DNA of 63,480 bases, counting the filler, from an uncultured Methanosarcinales archaeon (GTDB lineage Archaea > Nanobdellota > Nanobdellia > Woesearchaeales > CAZKBD01), in NCBI GenBank assembly GCA_964550945.1. It is 6 parts of 6 records of this genome, joined end to end, with 100 filler letters (N's around TTAATTAATTAA, not from the genome) between each part and the next. Parts side by side here need not be neighbours in the genome. Positions count along the whole stretch, not along the records: positions 33,877 to 44,903 come from CAZKBD010000063.1; 5 more parts are not named here. The stretch is one strand, 5' to 3'. The first letter of the stretch is position 1. Every line of letters begins with the position of its first letter. The notes under the pieces were generated by a model. That model made no database searches. It saw nothing but the letters and a program-made list of their open reading frames with translations, and was not told the DNA's origin. The position numbers and the translations under genes are program-made. This document shows positions 33,877 through 44,903 of this stretch, one piece after another.

Positions 33877-34098
33877 TAATATCAAGAAATCATATTCATT
33901 TTCAAATGCAGCTTGGATATACTTAAGCATGCTACTTTGTGTAACACTAAAAGGGAGATGGCACCACGCTAGAGTATGAATGTGGCCCGCAAATCTGGCA
34001 AAATCATCCTTTTTGCTTAGATCATCACCTAACAAAACATGCGTATCGTGCGCATATCTGTCTACCCTTTCCAGTCTTGAAGTATATCTTGGTTCCAT
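33877..34098 (-). CDS. hypothetical protein, 3'-truncated
   Basis: ORF runs into the spacer; upstream GAAAGGTTTATAAA promoter. Confidence 0.5.
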
Positions 34099-34350
34099 TT
34101 AACAAGCATTTAGGTAATTGTACAATAGGACTAAGAGAATATTACTTCTTTATAAACCTTTCCTTTTTAACTATCAATAAGTAGTTAATAATCAACAGAT
34201 ATTTGTTTACAAAACCTTTAAAAACAGTTTATCTTTTCCAATTAAGAACTCCAGAAACAAGACCTATGCTAACGGCAAAACAATTAGACTAGTTTGACAG
34301 AAAGGTTTATATATATGGTTATACTACCATAATTTTATGGTGTTATTAAC

Positions 34351-34932
34351 ATGAGACCTAAGGAATCCACTATTGTCAGGTTTCTTATAGAGCATAAACA
34401 TGAAGAGTTGAATATCCTTAATATCTCCAAAGCCCTGAAAATGGACTATAAGAATGTGTATTCTATTATTAAGCGGCTAGAAAAGACATATTTGGTAAAG
34501 ATTGAGACTTTTGGTCAGTCAAGCAGGGTTAAGCTTAATGGTTTAGTTCATCCGCTTATTTTTGAAGCAGAATTCGAGCGCAGAAAAGAGATTTTAAAGG
34601 ATAAAAACTTTGCAGTCATATTAAGCAGCTTCAAAAGGGGAATAAAATCAAAGCTCTATGTTTTGCTGCTGTTTGGCTCGTATGCAAAAAGAACGCAGAC
34701 CAAGAGTTCTGATATCGACTTAATGTTTATATGCCCTGATGGGCTTGAAAATATTTTTGAAAAAGAGGTTAATAGAGTTGCACGTTCCATGCCTTTACCC
34801 ATGCATTCCTTGGTATTTTCAGAGAGTCAGTTTCTTGAGATGATTAATGCGAGAGATTCTAATGTTGGACAGGAAGCTTTAAAACATAACGTGATTCTAT
34901 ATGGTGTAGAACCATATTATGAGTTGATTTGA
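34351..34932 (+). CDS. HTH + minimal nucleotidyltransferase (MNT antitoxin)
   Basis: N-terminal HTH; LFGSYAK....SDIDL. Confidence 0.88.
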   Translation: MRPKESTIVRFLIEHKHEELNILNISKALKMDYKNVYSIIKRLEKTYLVKIETFGQSSRVKLNGLVHPLIFEAEFERRKEILKDKNFAVILSSFKRGIKSKLYVLLLFGSYAKRTQTKSSDIDLMFICPDGLENIFEKEVNRVARSMPLPMHSLVFSESQFLEMINARDSNVGQEALKHNVILYGVEPYYELI

Positions 34933-35484
34933 ATGATTGACGCAAACCAGAAAAAAGAAGCCAAGCAGAATTTTGACAGATATTTGCAGGATGGACTTAT
35001 AAAAAAGGAAAAGAATGAAACAGCCAGAGCCACGTATCTGAAAAATACTGAATTGTCGCTTAATCTTGCAGAGGAGTGCATGAACAGCGCATTAAGGCCT
35101 TATCTTTGGGTTGTTGTCATCTCTTATTATTCGATGTTTTATATTGCAAATGCAGTTCTGCTTAACTTGGGATATAAAACTGGAGATAAAATAGTCCATA
35201 AAGTTACAAGTGACGCTTTGATTGTCTTGGTTATAGACAAGCTCAGGAAAGGGCTTTTGGAAGAGTATGAGGATGCAAAAGAAGATGCTTTGGAAATCGC
35301 TTCCATCAGGTCAGAAGAGCTTATGGTTTTTTATTCGCTGGAGATGGACAAGCGCTCAAGATTTCAATATGACATGACTGAAAGCATTCAGGAGAAGAAG
35401 GCAAGGACTTCTCTCACAAGAGCAAGAGAGTTTATACTTGAGATGAAGAAATTATTGCCTGAGTTTAAATTGGTGAGATCGTAA
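34933..35484 (+). CDS. HEPN domain protein
   Basis: SYYSMFY.A.AVL...HK and RSRFQY; abuts the MNT gene. Confidence 0.82.
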   Translation: MIDANQKKEAKQNFDRYLQDGLIKKEKNETARATYLKNTELSLNLAEECMNSALRPYLWVVVISYYSMFYIANAVLLNLGYKTGDKIVHKVTSDALIVLVIDKLRKGLLEEYEDAKEDALEIASIRSEELMVFYSLEMDKRSRFQYDMTESIQEKKARTSLTRAREFILEMKKLLPEFKLVRS

Positions 35485-35579
35485 CTGAACTGGTTCTAGT
35501 GGGTTTTTTAACAAAATCAGCCAGCACTCCTCAAACCACTTTCAAAACCTTTAAAAATAATTTAGGGTTCTTATGCTCT

Positions 35580-37337
35580 ATGGCAGAGATTAGAAGGATA
35601 TTAGTAACGTTTGTAGGCCATGTTGACCATGGGAAATCGAGTATATTGGATAAGATTAGGGGCACCACTATTGTTGAAAGGGAAGCAGGAAAAATAACCC
35701 AGGCAATTGGGGCTTCAATAATACCTATTGACACGATCAAAAGGGTATGCGGAGAGTTATTGAACGCAATAAAGACAGATGTTGCAATGCCAGGCATCTT
35801 AGCTATTGATACTCCTGGGCATGCGGCTTTTACCAACCTAAGAAAAAGAGGAGGTAACCTGGCTGATATTGCGGTTGTTGTTATTGACGTTAATGAAGGG
35901 CTTATGCCCCAAACCTTGGAAGCGATAGACATCTTAAAGCAATACAAGACTCCGTTTATAATAGCGTTAAATAAAATTGATTTACTGTCAGGATGGCAGT
36001 CTAAAGGCAAATTCCTGCTGCAGAATATCAGCCAGCTGAATGAAAATGCGCAGCTTTTATTGGACAAAAAGCTTTACGAGATTGTTGGCAAGCTTAGCCA
36101 GCTTGGCTTTGAGAGCGAAAGATTTGACAGAATCGAAGATTATACAAAACAGCTTGCAATTGTGCCAACATCAGCAAGAACAGGAGATGGAATCCCTGAG
36201 CTGCTTATGGTGCTGACTGGATTAGCCCAGAAATATCTTGAAAATTCCCTGAAGTGCAATATTAAAGGAGCTGCAAAAGGAACTGTCCTTGAAGTGAAGG
36301 AAGAGAAGGGCATTGGAAAATGCCTTGATGTGATCATCTATGATGGCAGTTTGAAGATCAAGGATACCATTGTTATTGGAGGGCTAGAGAAGCCAATTGT
36401 AACTAAGGTTAAAACATTATTTGAGCCAGCGCCTTTGGCAGAGATGAGGGACAAAAAAGCGAAATTCAAGTCAGTTAATAGTGTAGCGGCTGCAACTGGC
36501 GTAAAAATATCTGCTCATGATATCGACGAGGTTGTTGCGGGGATGCCATTAAGGTCTTGCTCAGAATCTGAACTAGATAATGTTAAAGAAGAAATACAAA
36601 AAGAGGTTGAAGAGGTTTTACTTGAAACAGACAATGAGGGGATTGTCATCAAGGCTGATTCTTTGGGAAGCCTGGAAGCTTTGTCTAAGCTTCTAAGGGA
36701 AAAAAATATCTCAATAAGCAGGGCTTCTGTCGGCAATATCAATAAAAAAGACATCTCAGATGCTGAAGCCAATCTTGAAAGAAACCACCTGTTTGCAGTT
36801 ATCTTAGGATTTAATGTCACAAATGAAACAGAGGAAGGCAAAGTAAAAATAATCACCAATGAAGTGATCTACAACCTGATTGAAGATTATGAAAAATGGC
36901 AAAAAAGTGAAATAAAGCGCATGGAGGCGGAAAAATTAGAGAATGTGATAAGGCCATGCAAGATACAGCTATTAAAAGGCTATGTTTTCAGGCAGAGCAA
37001 TCCTGCTATTGTAGGAGTGGATGTATTGGCAGGGACATTGACAACAAATATGCCTTTGATGAAAGAGGATGGCAATGAGCTGACAACAGCCAAATCAATG
37101 CAGATGGATAAGGAGAATGTTGAAAAGGCAGAAAGAAACAAGCAAGTGGCTGTTTCGCTGCCAGGGGTTGTTGTTGGAAGGCAGATAAATGAAGGAGACA
37201 TACTTTATTCAGCAATACCTGAAGAGGATTTTAAGAAGATGAAAGACCTAAAAAGCTATTTAAGCAAGGATGAGATTGCGGTCATCAAAGAGGTTGCGCA
37301 GATAAAAAGAAAGAATAATCCTGTCTGGGGAGTTTGA
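35580..37337 (+). CDS. infB: translation initiation factor aIF5B (IF-2)
   Basis: GHVDHGKS, ITQAIGA, DTPGHAAF.NLR.RGG, NKID, KADSLGSLEAL; start at MAEIRR. Confidence 0.97.
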   Translation: MAEIRRILVTFVGHVDHGKSSILDKIRGTTIVEREAGKITQAIGASIIPIDTIKRVCGELLNAIKTDVAMPGILAIDTPGHAAFTNLRKRGGNLADIAVVVIDVNEGLMPQTLEAIDILKQYKTPFIIALNKIDLLSGWQSKGKFLLQNISQLNENAQLLLDKKLYEIVGKLSQLGFESERFDRIEDYTKQLAIVPTSARTGDGIPELLMVLTGLAQKYLENSLKCNIKGAAKGTVLEVKEEKGIGKCLDVIIYDGSLKIKDTIVIGGLEKPIVTKVKTLFEPAPLAEMRDKKAKFKSVNSVAAATGVKISAHDIDEVVAGMPLRSCSESELDNVKEEIQKEVEEVLLETDNEGIVIKADSLGSLEALSKLLREKNISISRASVGNINKKDISDAEANLERNHLFAVILGFNVTNETEEGKVKIITNEVIYNLIEDYEKWQKSEIKRMEAEKLENVIRPCKIQLLKGYVFRQSNPAIVGVDVLAGTLTTNMPLMKEDGNELTTAKSMQMDKENVEKAERNKQVAVSLPGVVVGRQINEGDILYSAIPEEDFKKMKDLKSYLSKDEIAVIKEVAQIKRKNNPVWGV

Positions 37338-37344
37338 TTAAAAT

Positions 37345-37497
37345 ATGTTAACTAGAATAATAGGTAAAAATCATTTAATTGATCCTGATACTATTATGAC
37401 TGATGATGAGTATCGCTTATTTAAGCAAAGTATGAGGGAACAAAAAGAGGGAAAGTCTATCCCTATCTCTGAAATGAAGAAGAATTTAAGACTGTAG
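37345..37497 (+). CDS. small orphan antitoxin-like protein (50 aa)
   Basis: MLTRIIGKNHLIDPDTIMTDDEYRLFKQSMREQKEGKSIPISEMKKNLRL*; the C-terminal pattern resembles archaeal RelB-type antitoxins. Confidence 0.5.
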   Translation: MLTRIIGKNHLIDPDTIMTDDEYRLFKQSMREQKEGKSIPISEMKKNLRL

Positions 37498-37505
37498 ATG
37501 ACGTA

Positions 37506-37745
37506 GTGATTTTAAGTTAATAATAAAAAAAAATAATATTAATATCAATAAAAAATTTTAAAGTCAAAAGGTGAAGAAATAATTTTAAAATAAAATCAAT
37601 CACCCGTAATTATTAAATCAATGGTTGATTATTAGCCATTAAGAATAAAAATCAATAAGAAATAAAATTAATTAAAATAAAAAATTAAAACTAATAATAA
37701 AAAAAATAAATAATTATTACCAACTACTGTCCAAGGGAGCACAAC
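37506..37745. repeat. AT-rich dispersed ~240-bp element, copy B (inverted)
   Basis: GTGATTTTAAGTTAATAATAAAAA, TTAAAGTCAAAA, AATGGTTGATTATTAGCCATT, ATTACCAACTACTGTCCAA are reverse complements of blocks in copies A and C. Confidence 0.8.
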
Positions 37746-37749
37746 GTTA

Positions 37750-38199
37750 ATGCAAAACCTAAAAATTCTTAACAAAAAGGAAACCAAGCAAATTCTGTCT
37801 ATAATAAGCAAGCAGTTTGGCTGTGATGTTGAATTGGATTATGTTTTTATGAAAAATGAGAAAAACAAGATTTTCATAACAAACAGGCAAATCAGCGAAA
37901 TAGACCTCTCGAAACTAAGGGTAAACTCTGTCGGGCTTTACATTGCCGAGCAGAAAGACAATCAAATAAGGCTGAGCATAGAAGGATCTCAGCTGATAGG
38001 GCCTTATGCCAAAAAGAATGTTGTTGAGCTGAATGAAGAGCAGGCCAGCAAATGGATGAAAGGAGAAGACCTTGAGATTGAGGGAGATTACTCTGGATTC
38101 GTGATTATAAAATACAAAAAAGATTTCTTAGGCTGCGGTAAATATTCTAATGGAAGAATATGGAATTATGTGAACAAGATTAGAAGGATTAATGCTTAG
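37750..38199 (+). CDS. NIP7/RsmF-C-terminal-like PUA RNA-binding protein
   Basis: GLYIAE...IRLSIEGSQLIG..AKKNVVEL...W.KG.D...LGCGK. Confidence 0.72.
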   Translation: MQNLKILNKKETKQILSIISKQFGCDVELDYVFMKNEKNKIFITNRQISEIDLSKLRVNSVGLYIAEQKDNQIRLSIEGSQLIGPYAKKNVVELNEEQASKWMKGEDLEIEGDYSGFVIIKYKKDFLGCGKYSNGRIWNYVNKIRRINA

Positions 38200-38854
38200 A
38201 TAGAAAAACATAGCAATTCTGAACTCTGGTCTCTTCTCGCGCTACATATACTCTTGAAAAAGACAATCCATTCTGGAGCGCGTCTTCTCTAAACTCTATT
38301 ACCCCCGGCCCACCTATAAGGACTAAATTGGCTCCTTGCTTTGATTGCTCTGCAAATTTGGCAATAAGGTCGAATACAGTCAAAGAGTTTAGTCTATGAA
38401 GAAAGTAATCTACATCCTGAAAATCTATACCTAATTGCCTATAAGATTGATCAGCAAGATAATTGCCTTGTGCAACCTTGAATTGACTGGGGATTATCCT
38501 TTGTTGATAAAGCGTTTCAGAAGCATCTCTAGAAACACTTATTAGATACTCTTCTAAATCTAGCCCGTAGCAATCAAAGCCAAACAGGGATCCTATTGCA
38601 AGCGATCTTGAATCGCCACATCCAGCATCCATAATCTTTAGCCCTTCTAAATCTGAAAGTTCCCTAGTCTTTCTTTGGCGCATAATGCCCGCGGTTATTA
38701 TATCCACAAAAATATCTACACTATTAGCTAAAAAAACACCAGTAGCATCTTTGCTGCCTGTAATAAATATATGCTTTCCATCTCTAGCTAGCTGCCTATC
38801 AAGATCTGCATAATACTTCCTTATCCTTTGTACATCCTCAAATAAGTCTTTCAT
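38189..38854 (-). CDS. class I SAM-dependent methyltransferase (DOT1-like)
   Basis: IMDAGCGDSR, YGLD, QGNY, DVDYF; start 2 nt after the synthetase-like stop. Confidence 0.72.
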   Translation of the reverse strand: MKDLFEDVQRIRKYYADLDRQLARDGKHIFITGSKDATGVFLANSVDIFVDIITAGIMRQRKTRELSDLEGLKIMDAGCGDSRSLAIGSLFGFDCYGLDLEEYLISVSRDASETLYQQRIIPSQFKVAQGNYLADQSYRQLGIDFQDVDYFLHRLNSLTVFDLIAKFAEQSKQGANLVLIGGPGVIEFREDALQNGLSFSRVYVAREETRVQNCYVFLSKH

Positions 38855-38856
38855 TA

Positions 38857-40275
38857 TTATTTTCTTGCCAGCACTAGCTCTAATAATCTAACATAATGCT
38901 GAGGCAATTCTCCCACAGCCCTTTCAATCTCATCTGTTAATCCGTTATGAGCTTGAGCAGGATCTCTTTCAGCATTAAGGTCCATTGGATGATCTCTAAT
39001 CTGAAGGCTTGCCTTTCTTCCGTCCTTAAAATGCACAACATGATGCAAAGACCTGTAACCCGTATCTTTAGGATTCATGATATAATCTGGTTTTGTGACC
39101 TCTATTGACTCAACCCCTGCATAGCCTCTTTTAGCATCACTAGCAACATCAGACATCCTATAACACTCTTTATCATCGTTACTTGGCATTACAACCATCC
39201 TAAACCTATAAAAATCATTAATGTAATCACCTTCTTTTCTTTCTCCAAGCACAATCTGGCTAACCTTTTGTAACAGCCTTTCTAAATCCTTTGTTCCATA
39301 CCTAATTACCACCAGAGGTGTAAAATGATCCGCATACTGAAAAACCACATCCTTTACTGCTGTATAAACATTTGTCGGCATCCTTTTATTGGTAAACAGC
39401 CTAGCCTCATTAAATCGAGAGATGTTATACCTAGCGATTCCAGAAAATATGTCCTCTAAAACATTGTAGTCGCTGGTTGATCTAGAAAACGGCAGTTGAT
39501 TCAAGCGGCTTACCAGATAACCTAGTAATTGTCGCTGAGGAGAGGGGTTATCCACTATTGTTTTTATCTGGCTTAAAGAACCATGATCTCTTCCATTAGC
39601 TTGTATAATAAGCTCTAACCTTGCTAAGATATCAGTTAGAACACTGTCCATAACGCTCCTAACTGCTTCTTCACCGATATTTTTTTGCCTGAATATTATT
39701 CTTGCATCTTCTTTAAGGCTTATATCAGCTCCATTACATTTGTCGCATCTTATCTGCCCATTTACAAGTTCAGTTAATGTGGGATATACAAAATCAGAAT
39801 AGCTCAGCCCTTCGTTTTTTGGCGTAACTCCGTCTGGAACATACAATCTTGCAACCTGCTTCTTTCTTCCACTGCCACTAGTACAAGGATCGCATATTGC
39901 TTCAAACTCAAGAGATTCTTTAGAAGGGAATGCACGAGGTTGATGCCCATTTTCCTTAATATACTCTGCTGAGATTCCTAACGCTACTCCCCTGATATTA
40001 TGCAGCCTTGCTGTTTGCGCATCTAGTTCGCGAGCAAACCAATCTTCAGGTACATTTAGCGCAATCCTAACAGCATTAACAAGTTCGCTTAAAGTTCCAC
40101 CTATCTCATGTTCACTTTGGTCATACAAAATTTGTGCATGATAGCGCTTCTCTATCTCATTCTCTCCATGATTTTCAAGTATATTTGTAAGAATAGCTTG
40201 AGCAGCTTCTTGATCAAATACCCCCCCTAAAAGGCGCGCGATTCTTCTATGGGTATCCCTTTGTTTTGCCTGCAT
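38857..40275 (-). CDS. RelA/SpoT synthetase-domain protein with N-terminal Zn-ribbon (divergent)
   Basis: TKDLERLLQK, INDFYRFRMVV, DYIMNPKDTGYRSLH, SLQIRD..M...AE....AH; CDPC/CDKC. Confidence 0.78.
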   Translation of the reverse strand: MQAKQRDTHRRIARLLGGVFDQEAAQAILTNILENHGENEIEKRYHAQILYDQSEHEIGGTLSELVNAVRIALNVPEDWFARELDAQTARLHNIRGVALGISAEYIKENGHQPRAFPSKESLEFEAICDPCTSGSGRKKQVARLYVPDGVTPKNEGLSYSDFVYPTLTELVNGQIRCDKCNGADISLKEDARIIFRQKNIGEEAVRSVMDSVLTDILARLELIIQANGRDHGSLSQIKTIVDNPSPQRQLLGYLVSRLNQLPFSRSTSDYNVLEDIFSGIARYNISRFNEARLFTNKRMPTNVYTAVKDVVFQYADHFTPLVVIRYGTKDLERLLQKVSQIVLGERKEGDYINDFYRFRMVVMPSNDDKECYRMSDVASDAKRGYAGVESIEVTKPDYIMNPKDTGYRSLHHVVHFKDGRKASLQIRDHPMDLNAERDPAQAHNGLTDEIERAVGELPQHYVRLLELVLARK

Positions 40276-40296
40276 ATAGCTATATTTATTGGTAGA

Positions 40297-40311
40297 ATTT
40301 ATAAATCTTTC
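40297..40311 (-). promoter_or_regulatory. BRE-TATA promoter of the synthetase-like gene
   Basis: GAAAGATTTATAAAT ~22 nt before the ATG. Confidence 0.55.
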
Positions 40312-40349
40312 TATTTTTACTACTAATTAATAACAAATAATAAAAGAAT

Positions 40350-41582
40350 CTACTCAGGAAGCTCGCTTGCAAGCCTAACTAACTCCATTTCATTCGCTCT
40401 TATTATCTCTTTGTATGTCAGCCCTTTTATCGGCTCTACATGGCTTGGAACATCTCTGAATCTAGAACAGCCTTCAGGCAAGTATAGATTTTTAATTGCA
40501 GCGCTGCCAATCCTGCAATCCATATATAGCGTTTCAGGTAGAGTCTTAGAATCATGTTCTTCTGCCAAGGCAGCTACATACCTTTTTATTGTTGCCCTAA
40601 AACTGGAAGGGTCTTCACTGCTCTCATAAGTCATCTTTCTCATCAGTGGAGTATCTACATATCGCTCAAGCTCGCCATCAATTTGAGCAGCCAATTCAGG
40701 ATTAATGTGCGCTGCAAATTCCTTAGCCAGCCTCTCAAATTCAGATCGGACAGTATTGCATAATCTTGCATATCCATTGAATAGGCTTTCTCCTGTTTTA
40801 TCTCTAGTGGAATTAGCATATCTTTTCATATGATTAGCGCTGCTGTGGATATTGAAAAAACCCTTGAACTGGTTTGCAACAGCTATTGCTCCACTATAAT
40901 CTGTGCTGCCAGACCATCCAGCTATTGGACGAGTATCCCTGCAATTATCTGCGCTATCTCCCATTTTAATGCCTCTTGCTTCAGCGCTTCTAATAGACTC
41001 AAGATATGCTAAATAATGAACATCTTTTACGTGAGTCAGTTCCCAGACTGAAGTATAGTATGATTGGAGTTCTTCTTCAGTTAATCTTTGTTCATATTGA
41101 GCCAAATGGTCTGTTATACTCCTGCAAAATCTATCCTTAAAACCATTAGGAATGCCATCATAAATCAAAACAGGCCGATCGCCTCTAGGCAGCCTTATTG
41201 CCTCATTTACAAGGTTTTTGCCCCTTCTTTCAGGAGCATCGTGAACAGCAGCAGCAGCAATCGTAACTGCATCCCATCCGTCTTCAGCTACATTCATCAT
41301 TACATTATAGCAATGCCTGAAATACAGCCCTCCAGTTACTCTTCTTTGGTTTCTATGAGTCAAGAGCGCGTAAGCTGTTGAAAATGTTATTGCTGCTATT
41401 CCTTTCGGCGTTTTTTCTATTCTTGATGTATCAATTATTGGATCTGTAAACTTATGGAAACTTGGAGTAGCGACAATAGAATCTATATACTCGTTCCTTC
41501 TATGGCCTGGTTGTATAACTAAGGGAATTTTGCCTTCAGCTATAATCTTCTCTGCTAAATCAGATATTTCTGCATCGTCCAT
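40350..41582 (-). CDS. RelA/SpoT-type HD hydrolase domain protein (SAH/Mesh1-like, extended)
   Basis: HRNQRRVTGGLYFRH, AAAAVHDAPE, VWELTH, IKMGDSADN. Confidence 0.8.
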   Translation of the reverse strand: MDDAEISDLAEKIIAEGKIPLVIQPGHRRNEYIDSIVATPSFHKFTDPIIDTSRIEKTPKGIAAITFSTAYALLTHRNQRRVTGGLYFRHCYNVMMNVAEDGWDAVTIAAAAVHDAPERRGKNLVNEAIRLPRGDRPVLIYDGIPNGFKDRFCRSITDHLAQYEQRLTEEELQSYYTSVWELTHVKDVHYLAYLESIRSAEARGIKMGDSADNCRDTRPIAGWSGSTDYSGAIAVANQFKGFFNIHSSANHMKRYANSTRDKTGESLFNGYARLCNTVRSEFERLAKEFAAHINPELAAQIDGELERYVDTPLMRKMTYESSEDPSSFRATIKRYVAALAEEHDSKTLPETLYMDCRIGSAAIKNLYLPEGCSRFRDVPSHVEPIKGLTYKEIIRANEMELVRLASELPE

Positions 41583-41610
41583 CTTTCACAGTTATGCAAC
41601 TAACTCCTCA

Positions 41611-41625
41611 TTTTTAAATCTTTCG
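41611..41625 (-). promoter_or_regulatory. BRE-TATA promoter of the HD gene
   Basis: CGAAAGATTTAAAAA ~29 nt before the ATG. Confidence 0.5.
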
Positions 41626-41716
41626 CTTTTCATTACTATAAAGTAAAAACATTACCACTTAAACACATTTAAACCAAGAAAGACCGCTCTTTTATATGGG
41701 TAAATATTAGGAATAT

Positions 41717-42112
41717 TTATGCTTTTTGTATACTAATTGATATCTCGATGTCTTTTTGCTGGATATGCCTTATTAATTTCCTATTTAAATCACAGGAAGC
41801 CTTATCCGCATTTATCCCAAATGTCCTTTTAGAAATAAACTCGGTTTTTCTGATTACAATCTCTTTTTCATCAGAAAACTCAGTGTTTGCCTCACATATG
41901 ACCTCTTCGATTAAGCTACCAGCTTTAATCGTTACCTTTATTTTCTTGTTGTTTTTTACTATCTCAATCAGCTTATTCAAATCAAAATCAGCATTTACGC
42001 CAATAATGCAGTCAGCGTTCTTAGAAATATCCTCATCTTTAGTGAACTCTAATGTGGTTTTGTGGGCTCCGGTGATGTTAGGATGACTGTAAGCTGTGAA
42101 AGAATAAGACAT
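41717..42112 (-). CDS. DUF371 family protein
   Basis: HPNI...HKTTLEFTKD......DCIIGV.A, VIRK..F...RT..I.ADKAS.DL; start at MSYSF. Confidence 0.88.
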   Translation of the reverse strand: MSYSFTAYSHPNITGAHKTTLEFTKDEDISKNADCIIGVNADFDLNKLIEIVKNNKKIKVTIKAGSLIEEVICEANTEFSDEKEIVIRKTEFISKRTFGINADKASCDLNRKLIRHIQQKDIEISISIQKA

Positions 42113-42113
42113 C

Positions 42114-42335
42114 TTATCTCTTGACAATATCCTCGATAGGCTTTTTCTTTTTTGCTTCTGCAGCCATCTTCTCCAAATCAACGCCCAAGTCCTTAAGGCC
42201 TTTCACATGCATCTGCATCAGCTGCTCAACTATCTGCAATATCTTCATCATCTCTTCCCTTTCTTTTGCCAATGTGCTCAGGGCCCCTTTATGGAATCCA
42301 ATCTGCTCTTCGTTGCTTGATTTGTTTTTTGCCAT
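42114..42335 (-). CDS. small helical hypothetical protein
   Basis: 73 aa, coupled to DUF371, host-like composition. Confidence 0.7.
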   Translation of the reverse strand: MAKNKSSNEEQIGFHKGALSTLAKEREEMMKILQIVEQLMQMHVKGLKDLGVDLEKMAAEAKKKKPIEDIVKR

Positions 42336-42390
42336 ATTGCAATTAAAAAGAATAATCTATTTAAATAGTTTGTCATTTAATATAGTATAA

Positions 42391-42927
42391 ATGGAGAATC
42401 TAGCCAGGATAAAGCAGGAGTATGACCAGTTTTATGCATCTTTGATGAATAACGGCCTTTTGCCTATGAGGGATACATCTATAGGATTCTGGTTCTCTTC
42501 TTTGACAAGCGATATTATCGAGCTTTTTAAGAAAATAAGATTAGGGCAGTACAACTATTTTCTTGATATAGGCTCCGGAGATGGCAAAGTAACATTAATA
42601 GCATCAACATTCTGCAGTAAATGTTTTGGTGTTGAATATGATCCAATACTTATCGAGAAAAGCAGGGAGATGCAGAATAAGTTCGGGATAAAAAATGCAA
42701 GATTTCTGCATAAAAACCTTCATGATGTTGATTTTAGGGGATTTGATATTTTATTCTGCTATCCAGACCAGCCAATGGAAAGAGGTTTAGAGCAGAAGCT
42801 TCTTAACGAGCTAAATGGAAAATTAATCGTTTATGGCCCGCATTTCCATCCGACAAGGTTAAAGAAAATAGACTCGTTTTATGCTGGAACTACTTTTGTT
42901 GCGGTTTATGTCAGAGAAAAACCATAA
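42391..42927 (+). CDS. class I SAM-dependent methyltransferase (DOT1-like)
   Basis: FLDIGSGDG, GVEYD, DILF. Confidence 0.82.
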   Translation: MENLARIKQEYDQFYASLMNNGLLPMRDTSIGFWFSSLTSDIIELFKKIRLGQYNYFLDIGSGDGKVTLIASTFCSKCFGVEYDPILIEKSREMQNKFGIKNARFLHKNLHDVDFRGFDILFCYPDQPMERGLEQKLLNELNGKLIVYGPHFHPTRLKKIDSFYAGTTFVAVYVREKP

Positions 42928-43741
42928 TTCCGATATTTTTCATCTTATCATTATGGATATTTATTGTGTTTTTATCGATTATCTCTATCTTTTCTGCTTG
43001 TTTTAATTTTTTATACGTTTCATTGTTCGCTTCTGACATGATGGAATTATAGGACAAATAATCATTTTCTAATTTAAACTCTCTCAGCACAAATATGCCC
43101 TCATCTTCTGTATACAAGACAGCGCTCCTTAACATCCCTTCAAATATCCGGGAAATATCTTTTGAATGCTTTTCAATAATCTTTAGGTTGTTTTTTGCTA
43201 TCTTTATTGACTCCTCGCAATTGAGGCTGCAGGGAAAATGGCTTAACAAGCTTAAGTCAAGATGCCTTATAGCAACATTATTGTAAAATGGAAAAATAAA
43301 TCCTTTTGAATTTTTCAAGCTAGCTAGAACATAATCATTCTTTTTTTTGGATTCTATCGGGAAGTTTTTTTCAAAAAAATTGATGCAGCAGTCTGGATAG
43401 CCCAGCAGCTTACCTAGCTCCTTATGGTTGCTTTCTGCCTCTGCTTTTTTGGCTTGCTCTGCTTTTTCCTTTGATTTTGAGATGTAAACAAAATAGCTGC
43501 CTTTTTCATTGATAGGCAATCTTATTCCTTTGTTTGAGAATCTGTTTTCATCAATCTCTTTGCTTATTTTGAAATCAGAAACAGCAAAAGATAGGTTGTT
43601 TTTATTGAAAAAAGTTTTATAATCATCTAATTGGCTTTCATCAGCCATTATCCTGGAAACATCTTTAACGCCCTCAATAACATAAAGAACATCCAATGCC
43701 TTAGTCATCGATTTGAATAAATCAGTCAGAGCATCAATCAT
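42911..43741 (-). CDS. DUF483-like protein
   Basis: LGKLLGYPDCCINFF and HFPCS..C..S motifs; start at MIDAL. Confidence 0.7.
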   Translation of the reverse strand: MIDALTDLFKSMTKALDVLYVIEGVKDVSRIMADESQLDDYKTFFNKNNLSFAVSDFKISKEIDENRFSNKGIRLPINEKGSYFVYISKSKEKAEQAKKAEAESNHKELGKLLGYPDCCINFFEKNFPIESKKKNDYVLASLKNSKGFIFPFYNNVAIRHLDLSLLSHFPCSLNCEESIKIAKNNLKIIEKHSKDISRIFEGMLRSAVLYTEDEGIFVLREFKLENDYLSYNSIMSEANNETYKKLKQAEKIEIIDKNTINIHNDKMKNIGIMVFL

Positions 43742-43831
43742 AAGAACGGTTAGAATTTGTTTGTATAAAATTGTTTCGATTGATGATACTGGGTATATTG
43801 TTAGCAAGTAGGCTTTTTGAAGAAAGTTTGA

Positions 43832-44047
43832 ATGAAACTAATCCTAAACAGATTAGTGGAGGTTAAAATGACAGCACCATGCGTTAGTTTATCGGCAATA
43901 AATATACTTATCTCTTTAGCTATTTTAGTTGGTTTTTTGTCTCAACAAAAAGTAAGACAATTTTTTAAGGATAATAGTTGGATTTGGTTGTTGATAGGAC
44001 TCTTAATAATTAGTGGATCAATACAATTTAAACTAACTTGTCCTTGA
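43832..44047 (+). CDS. small membrane protein (hypothetical)
   Basis: Two hydrophobic segments; GGAGGT RBS suggests an internal start at 43868. Confidence 0.45.
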   Translation: MKLILNRLVEVKMTAPCVSLSAINILISLAILVGFLSQQKVRQFFKDNSWIWLLIGLLIISGSIQFKLTCP

Positions 44048-44337
44048 TACATAAAATTGTATAATCCATCGGTATTATACTAAGAATGGTTGGCTGCTAT
44101 TTACTTCTGCGGTTATGGTGTCATTGGGGATCTTTAGGCAACAAACGGGTGATGTATGGTAACAAAGCTCTGAAAAGGGCTAAAACTCCCAAATATGCCC
44201 TGTAATATAGACTATTTAATTAGGCTAATTCTAGGTGTTAACCTAACTAATTAGCCGCAAGTTCTCTGTGTGCAACGGAACGCAAAACCCAAAAGTTTAT
44301 ATATGTGTACCCACATACTTCACATAGGTGATAAAAT

Positions 44338-44556
44338 ATGCCAAACATGACATTATCGATACCAACGGAACTGCATGATATTGTAAAACAGCACACTGAA
44401 ATAAAGTGGAGTGAAGTAGCTAGAAGAGCAATGTGGATTCAAGCCAGAAAGCTTAGTCTGATGGACAGGCTGGCAGGAAAAAGCAAGCTCAGTGAAAAAG
44501 ATATTGAAGAACTTGACCACAAGATTAAGGCAGGGCTGTTCAAAAGGTTTGCATGA
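44338..44556 (+). CDS. RHH-type antitoxin (VapB-like)
   Basis: NMTLSIP.EL...[14 protein letters not shown] overlap with the PIN gene. Confidence 0.78.
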
Positions 44557-44903
44557 TGAGGATTATTGTAGATTCAAACATGATATTATCCGCTTTGCTG
44601 AAACAAGGTCTGAGCAGGAAAATAATATCCTCTCAAAACATAGAGTTCTATACCCTAGATTATGTTCTTAAGGAGATTGGAAAGTATATGGGCTATATTA
44701 TTCAAAAGTCAGGCATGCAAAAGGACGAGATAGAGGCGTTGCTTAGCTATTTTATGGAAAATATTGTAGTATTATCTGATGAAGAAGTTAATTCAAAAAT
44801 GGGTGAAGCAAAAAAGATCATGGAGAAGATCGATATTCGCGATTCTCCAATATTGGCATGTGCATTAGCAATCTCTAATGATGGAATATGGACAGAAGAC
44901 AAA
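44553..44903 (+). CDS. PIN-domain toxin (VapC-like), 3'-truncated
   Basis: [26 protein letters not shown]. Confidence 0.88.

Follow-up and report, generated by a model that had tools for sequence, protein, structure and literature searches.

Diverged RelA/SpoT-type synthetase and hydrolase genes, with an accessory methyltransferase gene, at a recurrent slot beside translation genes in Woesearchaeales

Two described systems are among the closest to the RelA/SpoT homologue (RSH) locus reported here. In Cellulomonas marina, the gene for the toxic small alarmone synthetase (toxSAS) FaRel stands beside an antitoxin gene for ATfaRel, a small alarmone hydrolase (SAH) of the PbcSpo type (PMC7229694). 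An SAH can reverse tRNA pyrophosphorylation, and no clear sequence signature sets apart the enzymes that target tRNA (10.1101/2021.04.30.441581). CapRel-SJ46 is an RSH synthetase joined to a variable, zinc-finger-like sensor domain (PMC9712102; PDB 7ztb). In archaea, (p)ppGpp is described as undetected and RSH enzymes as rare (PMC10249747). Here, we analyzed three genes in a 63,480-nucleotide stretch of DNA (the window, filler included) from an uncultured archaeon of the order Woesearchaeales (GCA_964550945.1, here G000; 1.97 Mb, 92.5% complete); other genomes are numbered G and fetched loci L. The window joins six contigs by spacers of N's, one of which, C63 (11,027 bp), spans window positions 33877-44903. 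The original prediction had placed three co-oriented genes on this contig, and open reading frames (ORFs) for all three were found there on the minus strand:

40350..41582, minus strand: predicted RSH-type HD hydrolase (SAH-like), 410 amino acids (aa), from HD_4, profile matches and residues; about 200 aa of its C-terminal portion are assigned to no domain
38857..40275, minus strand: stand-alone RSH synthetase (like a small alarmone synthetase, SAS), 472 aa, from PF04607, an AlphaFold2 (AF2) model, Foldseek and VIA
39688..39924, minus strand: CxxC-CxxC beta-ribbon, probable zinc ribbon, synthetase residues 118-196, from modelled secondary structure
38947..39312, minus strand: synthetase catalytic core, residues 322-443, from Pfam and motif alignment
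38189..38854, minus strand: predicted class I S-adenosylmethionine (SAM)-dependent methyltransferase, 221 aa, from a weak Pfam match, profile matches and orthologues

We found that the synthetase is RSH by fold and the hydrolase probably so, that each is missing one active-site feature, and that the locus has neither the makeup of a toxSAS operon nor the marks of a split Rel. Like FaRel/ATfaRel, it has an adjacent stand-alone synthetase and hydrolase, a three-gene arrangement and a hydrolase that could act on the product without binding (PMC7229694), whereas its proteins are 400-470 aa long with large unassigned regions, its RSH genes have separate promoter motifs and a fixed, translation-linked slot, and its third gene encodes a predicted methyltransferase. 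It resembles CapRel-SJ46 in joining an RSH synthetase to a zinc-finger-like domain, often with no hydrolase beside it, but the ribbon lies N-terminal of the core at residues 118-196 with its cysteines mostly kept, whereas the pseudo-zinc-finger sensor of CapRel is C-terminal and cysteine-less. RSH genes were already known in Woesearchaeota (PMC8407392); the present locus contributes a zinc-ribbon synthetase family, a donor pocket from which two residues are missing together, and tallies of how often the slot is used and the methyltransferase occurs. The literature yielded no description of the slot, the arrangement or the synthetase family, supplements aside, and the datasets of Jimmy et al. 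may hold members; the closest statement located concerned the presence of RSH in DPANN.

We begin with the synthetase. In a Pfam scan, PF04607 matched residues 329-436 at 39.4 bits (cut-off 27; E 8.4e-10), as had been proposed, and no HD, TGS or ACT domain passed, which identifies a stand-alone synthetase; PF04607 also matched 12/12 members of its family. A search of 1.84 billion representative sequences returned 22 matches, the closest being P0002 from a Candidatus Woesearchaeota archaeon. The AF2 model, built from the query plus 11 of the 22 matches (alignment A1; 438-475 aa, 17-28% identical to the query), reached a predicted local distance difference test score (pLDDT) of 81.3 and a predicted template modelling score of 0.80. 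RelP gave the top Foldseek matches, and across Foldseek and VIA the highest ranks went to RelP, Rel, SpoT, CapRel, RelA and RelQ. The top 8 VIA rows were all RSH, with Z around 10 (Z 8.6-10.6, root-mean-square deviation [rmsd] 2.9-3.9, 119-144 residues aligned), led by Bacillus subtilis Rel (Z 10.6, rmsd 3.1, 131 aligned); CapRel-SJ46 (Z 9.3, rmsd 3.3, 138 aligned) matched in the core only and tied with Rel and RelP. A profile of the catalytic core matched RelP/RelQ at E 4e-17. Together, Pfam and the modelled fold indicate that the 472-aa protein is an RSH synthetase, whose best profile and Foldseek matches are the housekeeping SAS RelP and RelQ (PDB 6ewz, 6fgk, 5dec); it is, however, twice as long as these.

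The extra length appears to lie within the fold. Only 130-145 residues align in structural matches that cover model positions ~80-445, so that a CxxC-CxxC beta-ribbon and helical bundle (~109-318, ~210 aa) appears to interrupt the synthetase fold just past its first helix, an estimate that uses the first and last matched residues only; about 30 residues follow the core. The two CxxC pairs noted originally are present as C128xxC131 and C177xxC180, and both are kept in 8/12 aligned family members (one CxC variant counted) and lost in 4. An Atlas search with residues 105-320 gave no usable match. Word-index homology searches returned nothing beyond the proteins of the window itself or a single family member, pattern scans gave core-only matches in bacteria and otherwise none, a viral fold search matched the core only, and a class-wide draw of 180 genomes yielded no member of the synthetase family.

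The motif series in the original prediction was sound for the Lys pair (K329, K337), DxxxxR (the Mg-binding D354 and the second Arg, R359), the G-loop Tyr (Y398) and the Gln (Q425), all of which are kept, but it passed over two losses, the RxK Arg (G327) and the ExQ Glu (S423). Contigs from runs X1 and X3, which may be the source sample, show identical letters at the altered-residue codons of both enzymes. Both residues are present in 10/10 long Rel, whereas among 17 family rows the Glu is replaced in five and the Arg in five. The ExQ Glu is probably also essential for catalysis in RelQ and RelP, although literature searches for mutants of this residue found none. G327 and S423 correspond to R78 and E174 of RelP and to R64 and E145 of FaRel2, which contact the adenine of the donor ATP, while D90 of FaRel2 holds magnesium (PMC11782079, figure legend). 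Since the FaRel2 equivalents contact the donor, the two losses would alter donor choice or lower activity.

The hydrolase is more diverged. The proposed HD_4 match came in under the cut-off (25 bits against 27.2; E 1.8e-5, residues 70-122), but a profile built from 15 hydrolases, some of the slot and others related to them, reached SpoT/Rel/MESH1 at E 7e-17 to 2e-9 (E 7e-17 for the HD domains of SpoT/Rel, E 4e-10 for MESH1). SAH/MESH1 proteins (PDB 3nr1, 4yf1, 7qoe; profile E 4e-10 to 2e-9) share R-x-x-G..F/Y-x-H, HD and K-x-x-D-x-x-x-N, and the window protein keeps R81, Y87, H90, H114-D115, K206, D209 and N213, with H90, H114, D115 and D209 as metal ligands; it differs in being 410 aa rather than ~180-200 aa long and in having E118-R119 in place of the catalytic E-D, which the otherwise correct motif list had omitted. 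Where the E-D Asp would stand, several slot homologues have E, S or K, and substitution of this Asp (D83) inactivates Acinetobacter baumannii SpoT (PMC9974481). Sequence searches found no full-length relative, and BLASTP gave no alignment between the hydrolases of G000 and G048. A single-sequence model had a pLDDT of 34.4, and a predicted complex with the synthetase scored 0.00 and was used neither way. Judged by profile and residues, the 410-aa protein is predicted to be an RSH-type HD hydrolase.

Since residues are lost in both enzymes, we considered whether these are pseudo-enzymes that catalyze little or nothing, either regulators that bind nucleotides or RNA or a module in decay. RSH pseudo-domains have precedent (PMC9974481), and both the replaced Arg and Glu and the E-R for E-D would fit. 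We nevertheless regard this as unlikely, since, in contrast to the A. baumannii pseudo-synthetase, the window synthetase retains the catalytic Asp and Gln (PMC9974481) together with the second Arg and the G-loop Tyr, the reading frames are intact, the hydrolase metal ligands are retained, and the frequency with which the Glu and Arg are each replaced in the family makes them look like tolerated variants. The paired donor-pocket loss in the G000 copy offers a sharp test between changed specificity and a dead enzyme.

The locus lies downstream of an aIF5B gene and a PUA gene, in a slot bounded by the following features (in relatives, KsgA-like and second PUA genes also flank it):

37750..38199, plus strand: PUA-domain protein (RsmF-type PUA; PF13636, E 4.6e-13), convergent, slot anchor; overlaps the methyltransferase 3' end by 11 nucleotides (nt)
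35499..37337, plus strand: conserved flank by neighbour clustering, probably the translation initiation GTPase aIF5B/IF2 from its motifs
41717..42181, minus strand: DUF371 protein (PF04027, E 1.5e-31), conserved flank on the opposite side
42114..42335, minus strand: conserved 73-aa flanking protein of no family, from ORF, Pfam and neighbour comparison

We surveyed this slot from two directions. Starting from synthetases, we read 60 of the loci with short or diverged PF04607 matches, the window and 8 earlier loci, 67 of which gave a synthetase call (L138 and L140 gave none); in 21/67, the synthetase lay within two ORFs of the single PUA gene, and these 21 fell into 17 families. To start from something other than RSH, we located the PUA gene in 55/60 relatives (56/61 genomes overall) and examined the genes around it. 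The slot held an RSH synthetase or hydrolase in 18/55 relatives (13/50 newly fetched loci at E<1e-3 and 5/5 fetched earlier), with both in 6, and no RSH gene was detected there in the other 37. The best reversed-sequence decoys reached E 0.79 and 0.41; the profiles were iterated on slot loci, but in the first pass the matches, at E 2e-3 or better, already stood well clear of these decoys. Six slot genes that look RSH-like by eye (L159, L169, L173, L181, L183, L193) were not counted as synthetases, L169 being among the 13 through its hydrolase. A hydrolase-then-synthetase order recurred in eight genomes (G015, G018, G022, G037, G060, G130, G263, G389), and G015 has the window's gene order minus the methyltransferase. 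Thus, the two refuting findings named at the outset, absence of an RSH fold or homologues that never neighbour each other, did not materialize. A slot holding a very diverged, fast-changing RSH gene or pair is a feature of the order.

Between families, identity to G000 is 49-57% for aIF5B and PUA, 19-29% for the synthetases and 19-21% for the hydrolases, compared with 20% in a shuffled control. In a quick tree (84 rows by 172 columns; L142 and L105 omitted), slot synthetases sit on long end branches and ten long Rel on short ones. The core of the 21 slot synthetases is kept (Asp in 21, Gln/His in 20, Lys in 19, Arg in 17, Glu in 17). Their single origin is neither shown nor excluded by this tree. 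One could ask whether the slot is simply an insertion hotspot, where RSH genes of several origins and a methyltransferase landed independently with no joint function. Consistent with this, sigma-70, IS200 and GNAT-like genes and genes of no family occur at or beside the slot, the slot-synthetase tree is unresolved, the window's synthetase family (by a profile that includes the G000, G015 and G048 sequences) also occurs at other genome sites in G048, G097, G272 and G278, and G042 and G068 have the methyltransferase at the slot with no detected synthetase. However, RSH genes dominate the slot, the hydrolase-then-synthetase order recurs, and 6/12 of the closest methyltransferases adjoin a synthetase compared with 0/18 others; we consider independent insertion very unlikely.

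Several passengers and relatives were seen along the way. In the archaeal genome G070, a sigma-70-family gene (L084:4086-4880; regions 2, 3 and 4 above cut-off) separates aIF5B from PUA. At L101, L105, L136, L143 and L103, the passengers are an IS200 transposase, a weak GNAT match and three genes of 185-272 aa, one of them methyltransferase-like by eye. At L233:4144-7940, away from the slot, the gene for the P0002 synthetase comes after a tandem of two HD paralogues that are 36% identical, and a 1,005-aa gene of no known kind lies next to them.

The third gene starts with an ATG 2 nt downstream of the synthetase stop, as originally described, which couples the two genes. Its Methyltransf_11 match is weak (E 0.044), but its profile reached SAM methyltransferases of the PDB at E 1e-5, and the glycine-rich motif I (D-A-G-C-G) and acidic motif II (D99) are conserved, so that the 221-aa product is predicted to be a class I SAM methyltransferase. 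Atlas look-alikes were unnamed and DOT1-like methyltransferase clusters, the look-alikes carrying DOT1; the slot protein itself has no PF08123 match in Pfam and matches a second, DOT1-like methyltransferase gene of the window (42391-42927, plus strand; PF08123 above cut-off) at E 0.006. Searching 401 genomes with a four-sequence profile gave matches in 33, and 30 loci were read. Among the 12 best, four of which had built the profile, 8 adjoin PUA or aIF5B and 6 adjoin a synthetase (one weakly, E 8e-3); none of the remaining 18 adjoins a synthetase. The proposed check for synteny was borne out in related genomes: the full hydrolase-synthetase-methyltransferase order also occurs in G018 and G145, which share a genus, and synthetase with methyltransferase in G012, G170 and G284. 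The full-length synthetase family, on the other hand, is found in 8 genomes with the methyltransferase alongside in G000 only, so that the gene is not a core part of the module. Since its closest synthetase relatives lack it, and since the G012 methyltransferase is 49% identical to that of G000 while the synthetase (cut by a contig end) is 21% identical, the methyltransferase is an optional, accessory resident that tracks the slot and not this synthetase family.

Each RSH gene was originally assigned its own promoter with a TFB recognition element (BRE) and TATA box, and this stood, since both carry a genome-typical motif, GAAAG[AG]TTTA[AT]A[AT]A:

41611..41625, minus strand: BRE/TATA-like motif, 28 nt ahead of the hydrolase ATG
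40298..40312, minus strand: BRE/TATA-like motif, 22 nt ahead of the synthetase ATG

A loose BRE-TATA pattern was not enriched (40 matches, 38.5 expected). For the tighter motif, which was defined post hoc after sites from the loose pattern had been seen, 32/69 genome matches lay within 80 nt upstream of an ORF (3.4% expected), 22 of the 32 at 20-29 nt. Third-position GC content and codon likelihood of the three genes fall within the 22nd-93rd percentile of 1,068 ORFs; given this native usage, we rejected a recent horizontal arrival. An Rfam scan of the contig gave no match.

RSH genes abound in the order. In 183/401 genomes PF04607 found a match, 178 of them above the cut-off (a tally that includes the unpublished G244 and G182), and RelA/SpoT was reported in 41.7% of Woesearchaeota (PMC8407392), so that the claim of rarity in archaea fails here. 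Among the 150 matches listed, most are in frames of ~620-700 aa. These long Rel of DPANN/Woesearchaeota (PMC8407392) belong to the same superfamily and order as the window genes, but each is one conserved 620-700-aa polypeptide, in a clade of its own (Shimodaira-Hasegawa-like approximate likelihood-ratio test [SH-aLRT] 98 in the quick tree). The term "split RelA/SpoT" used at first does not apply: we ruled out that the window genes are halves of a long Rel, since the synthetase has no TGS/ACT domain and does not group with that clade. The window locus is the only RSH locus found in G000, which has no long Rel match at 92.5% completeness.

Other RSH types were also seen in the order. Loci L032-L061 illustrate how widespread and well conserved the 620-700-aa long Rel is. 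A separate clade of 13 conserved small synthetases of 340-440 aa (L087-L095, L097, L114, L117, L120; SH-aLRT 99) has varied neighbourhoods and no adjacent HD gene. Synthetases of ~475 aa with an altered G-loop region (L104, L133, L134, L137, L139; SH-aLRT 97) include two that adjoin a DRG-like GTPase gene. L100 and L121 hold a compact hydrolase-synthetase pair of one family (265-278 plus 256 aa), beside a gene that, from its motif, is presumably a SAM synthetase.

We next weigh what the pair may do. It could be a housekeeping alarmone system that produces and removes (p)ppGpp or some similar nucleotide, in a stringent-like control of translation that replaces long Rel. We keep this reading, as possible if somewhat unlikely, because of the fixed, translation-linked address beside aIF5B, PUA and DUF371 (with KsgA-like genes and another PUA gene nearby in relatives), the separate promoter motifs, and the lack of a long Rel match in G000, where this is the sole RSH locus found; native codon use also fits. 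Its difficulties are that divergence far exceeds that of the flanking genes and of the order's long Rel, that a slot synthetase and a long Rel-sized match coexist in 8/21 genomes, so that the former is not merely a replacement, that 37/55 relatives have no RSH gene detected at the slot, that the synthetase lacks a ribosome-sensing TGS/ACT domain, and that (p)ppGpp is not yet detected in archaea (PMC10249747).

We tentatively favor, at somewhat less than an even chance, a toxSAS-like enzyme that writes pyrophosphate under regulation, paired with an eraser, the two serving at this fast-evolving slot as a dormancy or defence switch. The synthetase would use a nucleotide donor to pyrophosphorylate a 3'-OH, that of a purine nucleotide or of the tRNA CCA end, and thereby slow translation or growth. 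It would normally be held off by its large non-catalytic region, with the zinc ribbon and helices acting as a sensor by analogy with the CapRel pseudo-zinc finger, and the HD protein would take off the pyrophosphate. The switch would serve dormancy or defence under conflict, with the methyltransferase as an optional third gene to which no role is assigned. Self-inhibition is suggested by the 8/21 slot genomes in which an adjacent HD gene and a long Rel match are both missing. Altogether, a self-inhibited, trigger-gated enzyme seems a better fit than a housekeeping one to a conserved core within a hypervariable body, to the patchy distribution, to the co-occurrence with long Rel and to the 13/21 slot loci with no adjacent hydrolase.

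Several observations weigh against this switch. The catalytic activity of both proteins is a prediction, and each has lost active-site residues (G327 and S423; E118-R119). The sensor role is an analogy only, as no sequence or fold link was found to the CapRel domain, whose C-terminal position the ribbon does not share. An adjacent HD gene was found in 8/21 slot loci and 3/8 genomes of the family, the loci lacking it including some that end at contig edges, so that the conserved two- to three-gene operon with a constant antitoxin that marks toxSAS is not what we see; with separate promoter motifs, native codons and a fixed housekeeping address, the locus also sits badly with a mobile toxin-antitoxin bicistron of the classic type. 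The quick tree, with 4 changes, does not support the slot synthetases as a clade. The lack of a long Rel match in G000 fits a housekeeping role equally well. A pattern scan of viral contigs found no relative, and PADLOC returned only a 31-residue core match to PDC-S33. Of the undescribed alarmone or toxSAS-like module first proposed, then, the RSH folds, the neighbouring homologues, the recurring order and the absence of a paper on the arrangement hold up, while the methyltransferase drops out of its core.

In this order, many genomes thus have a conserved long Rel, and about a third of those sampled have a second, fast-changing RSH gene or pair at one address, whose proteins mostly fall below Pfam cut-offs. 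These proteins can be cloned to find out if alarmone or tRNA-pyrophosphorylation chemistry operates in archaea, and they bear on whether small symbiotic archaea use RSH for dormancy or defence. A bolder version, which we think quite improbable, is an order-wide, virus- or host-driven RSH switch in which a zinc-ribbon-gated synthetase with a remodelled donor pocket would pyrophosphorylate the 3' end of tRNA or other RNA, or use a non-ATP donor, the hydrolase would reverse this, and the co-transcribed methyltransferase would mark or protect a component. If true, this would be an archaeal signal or modification not previously described.

Two further gene pairs lie on the same contig. Just upstream of aIF5B (window 34351-35484, plus strand), a gene with a helix-turn-helix and a polymerase-beta nucleotidyltransferase domain is followed by a HEPN gene, resembling an MNT-HEPN toxin-antitoxin pair, and similar genes lie upstream of aIF5B in G001 and G092. 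At window 44338-44903 (plus strand), a small antitoxin-like gene precedes a PIN-domain gene that is truncated by the contig end.

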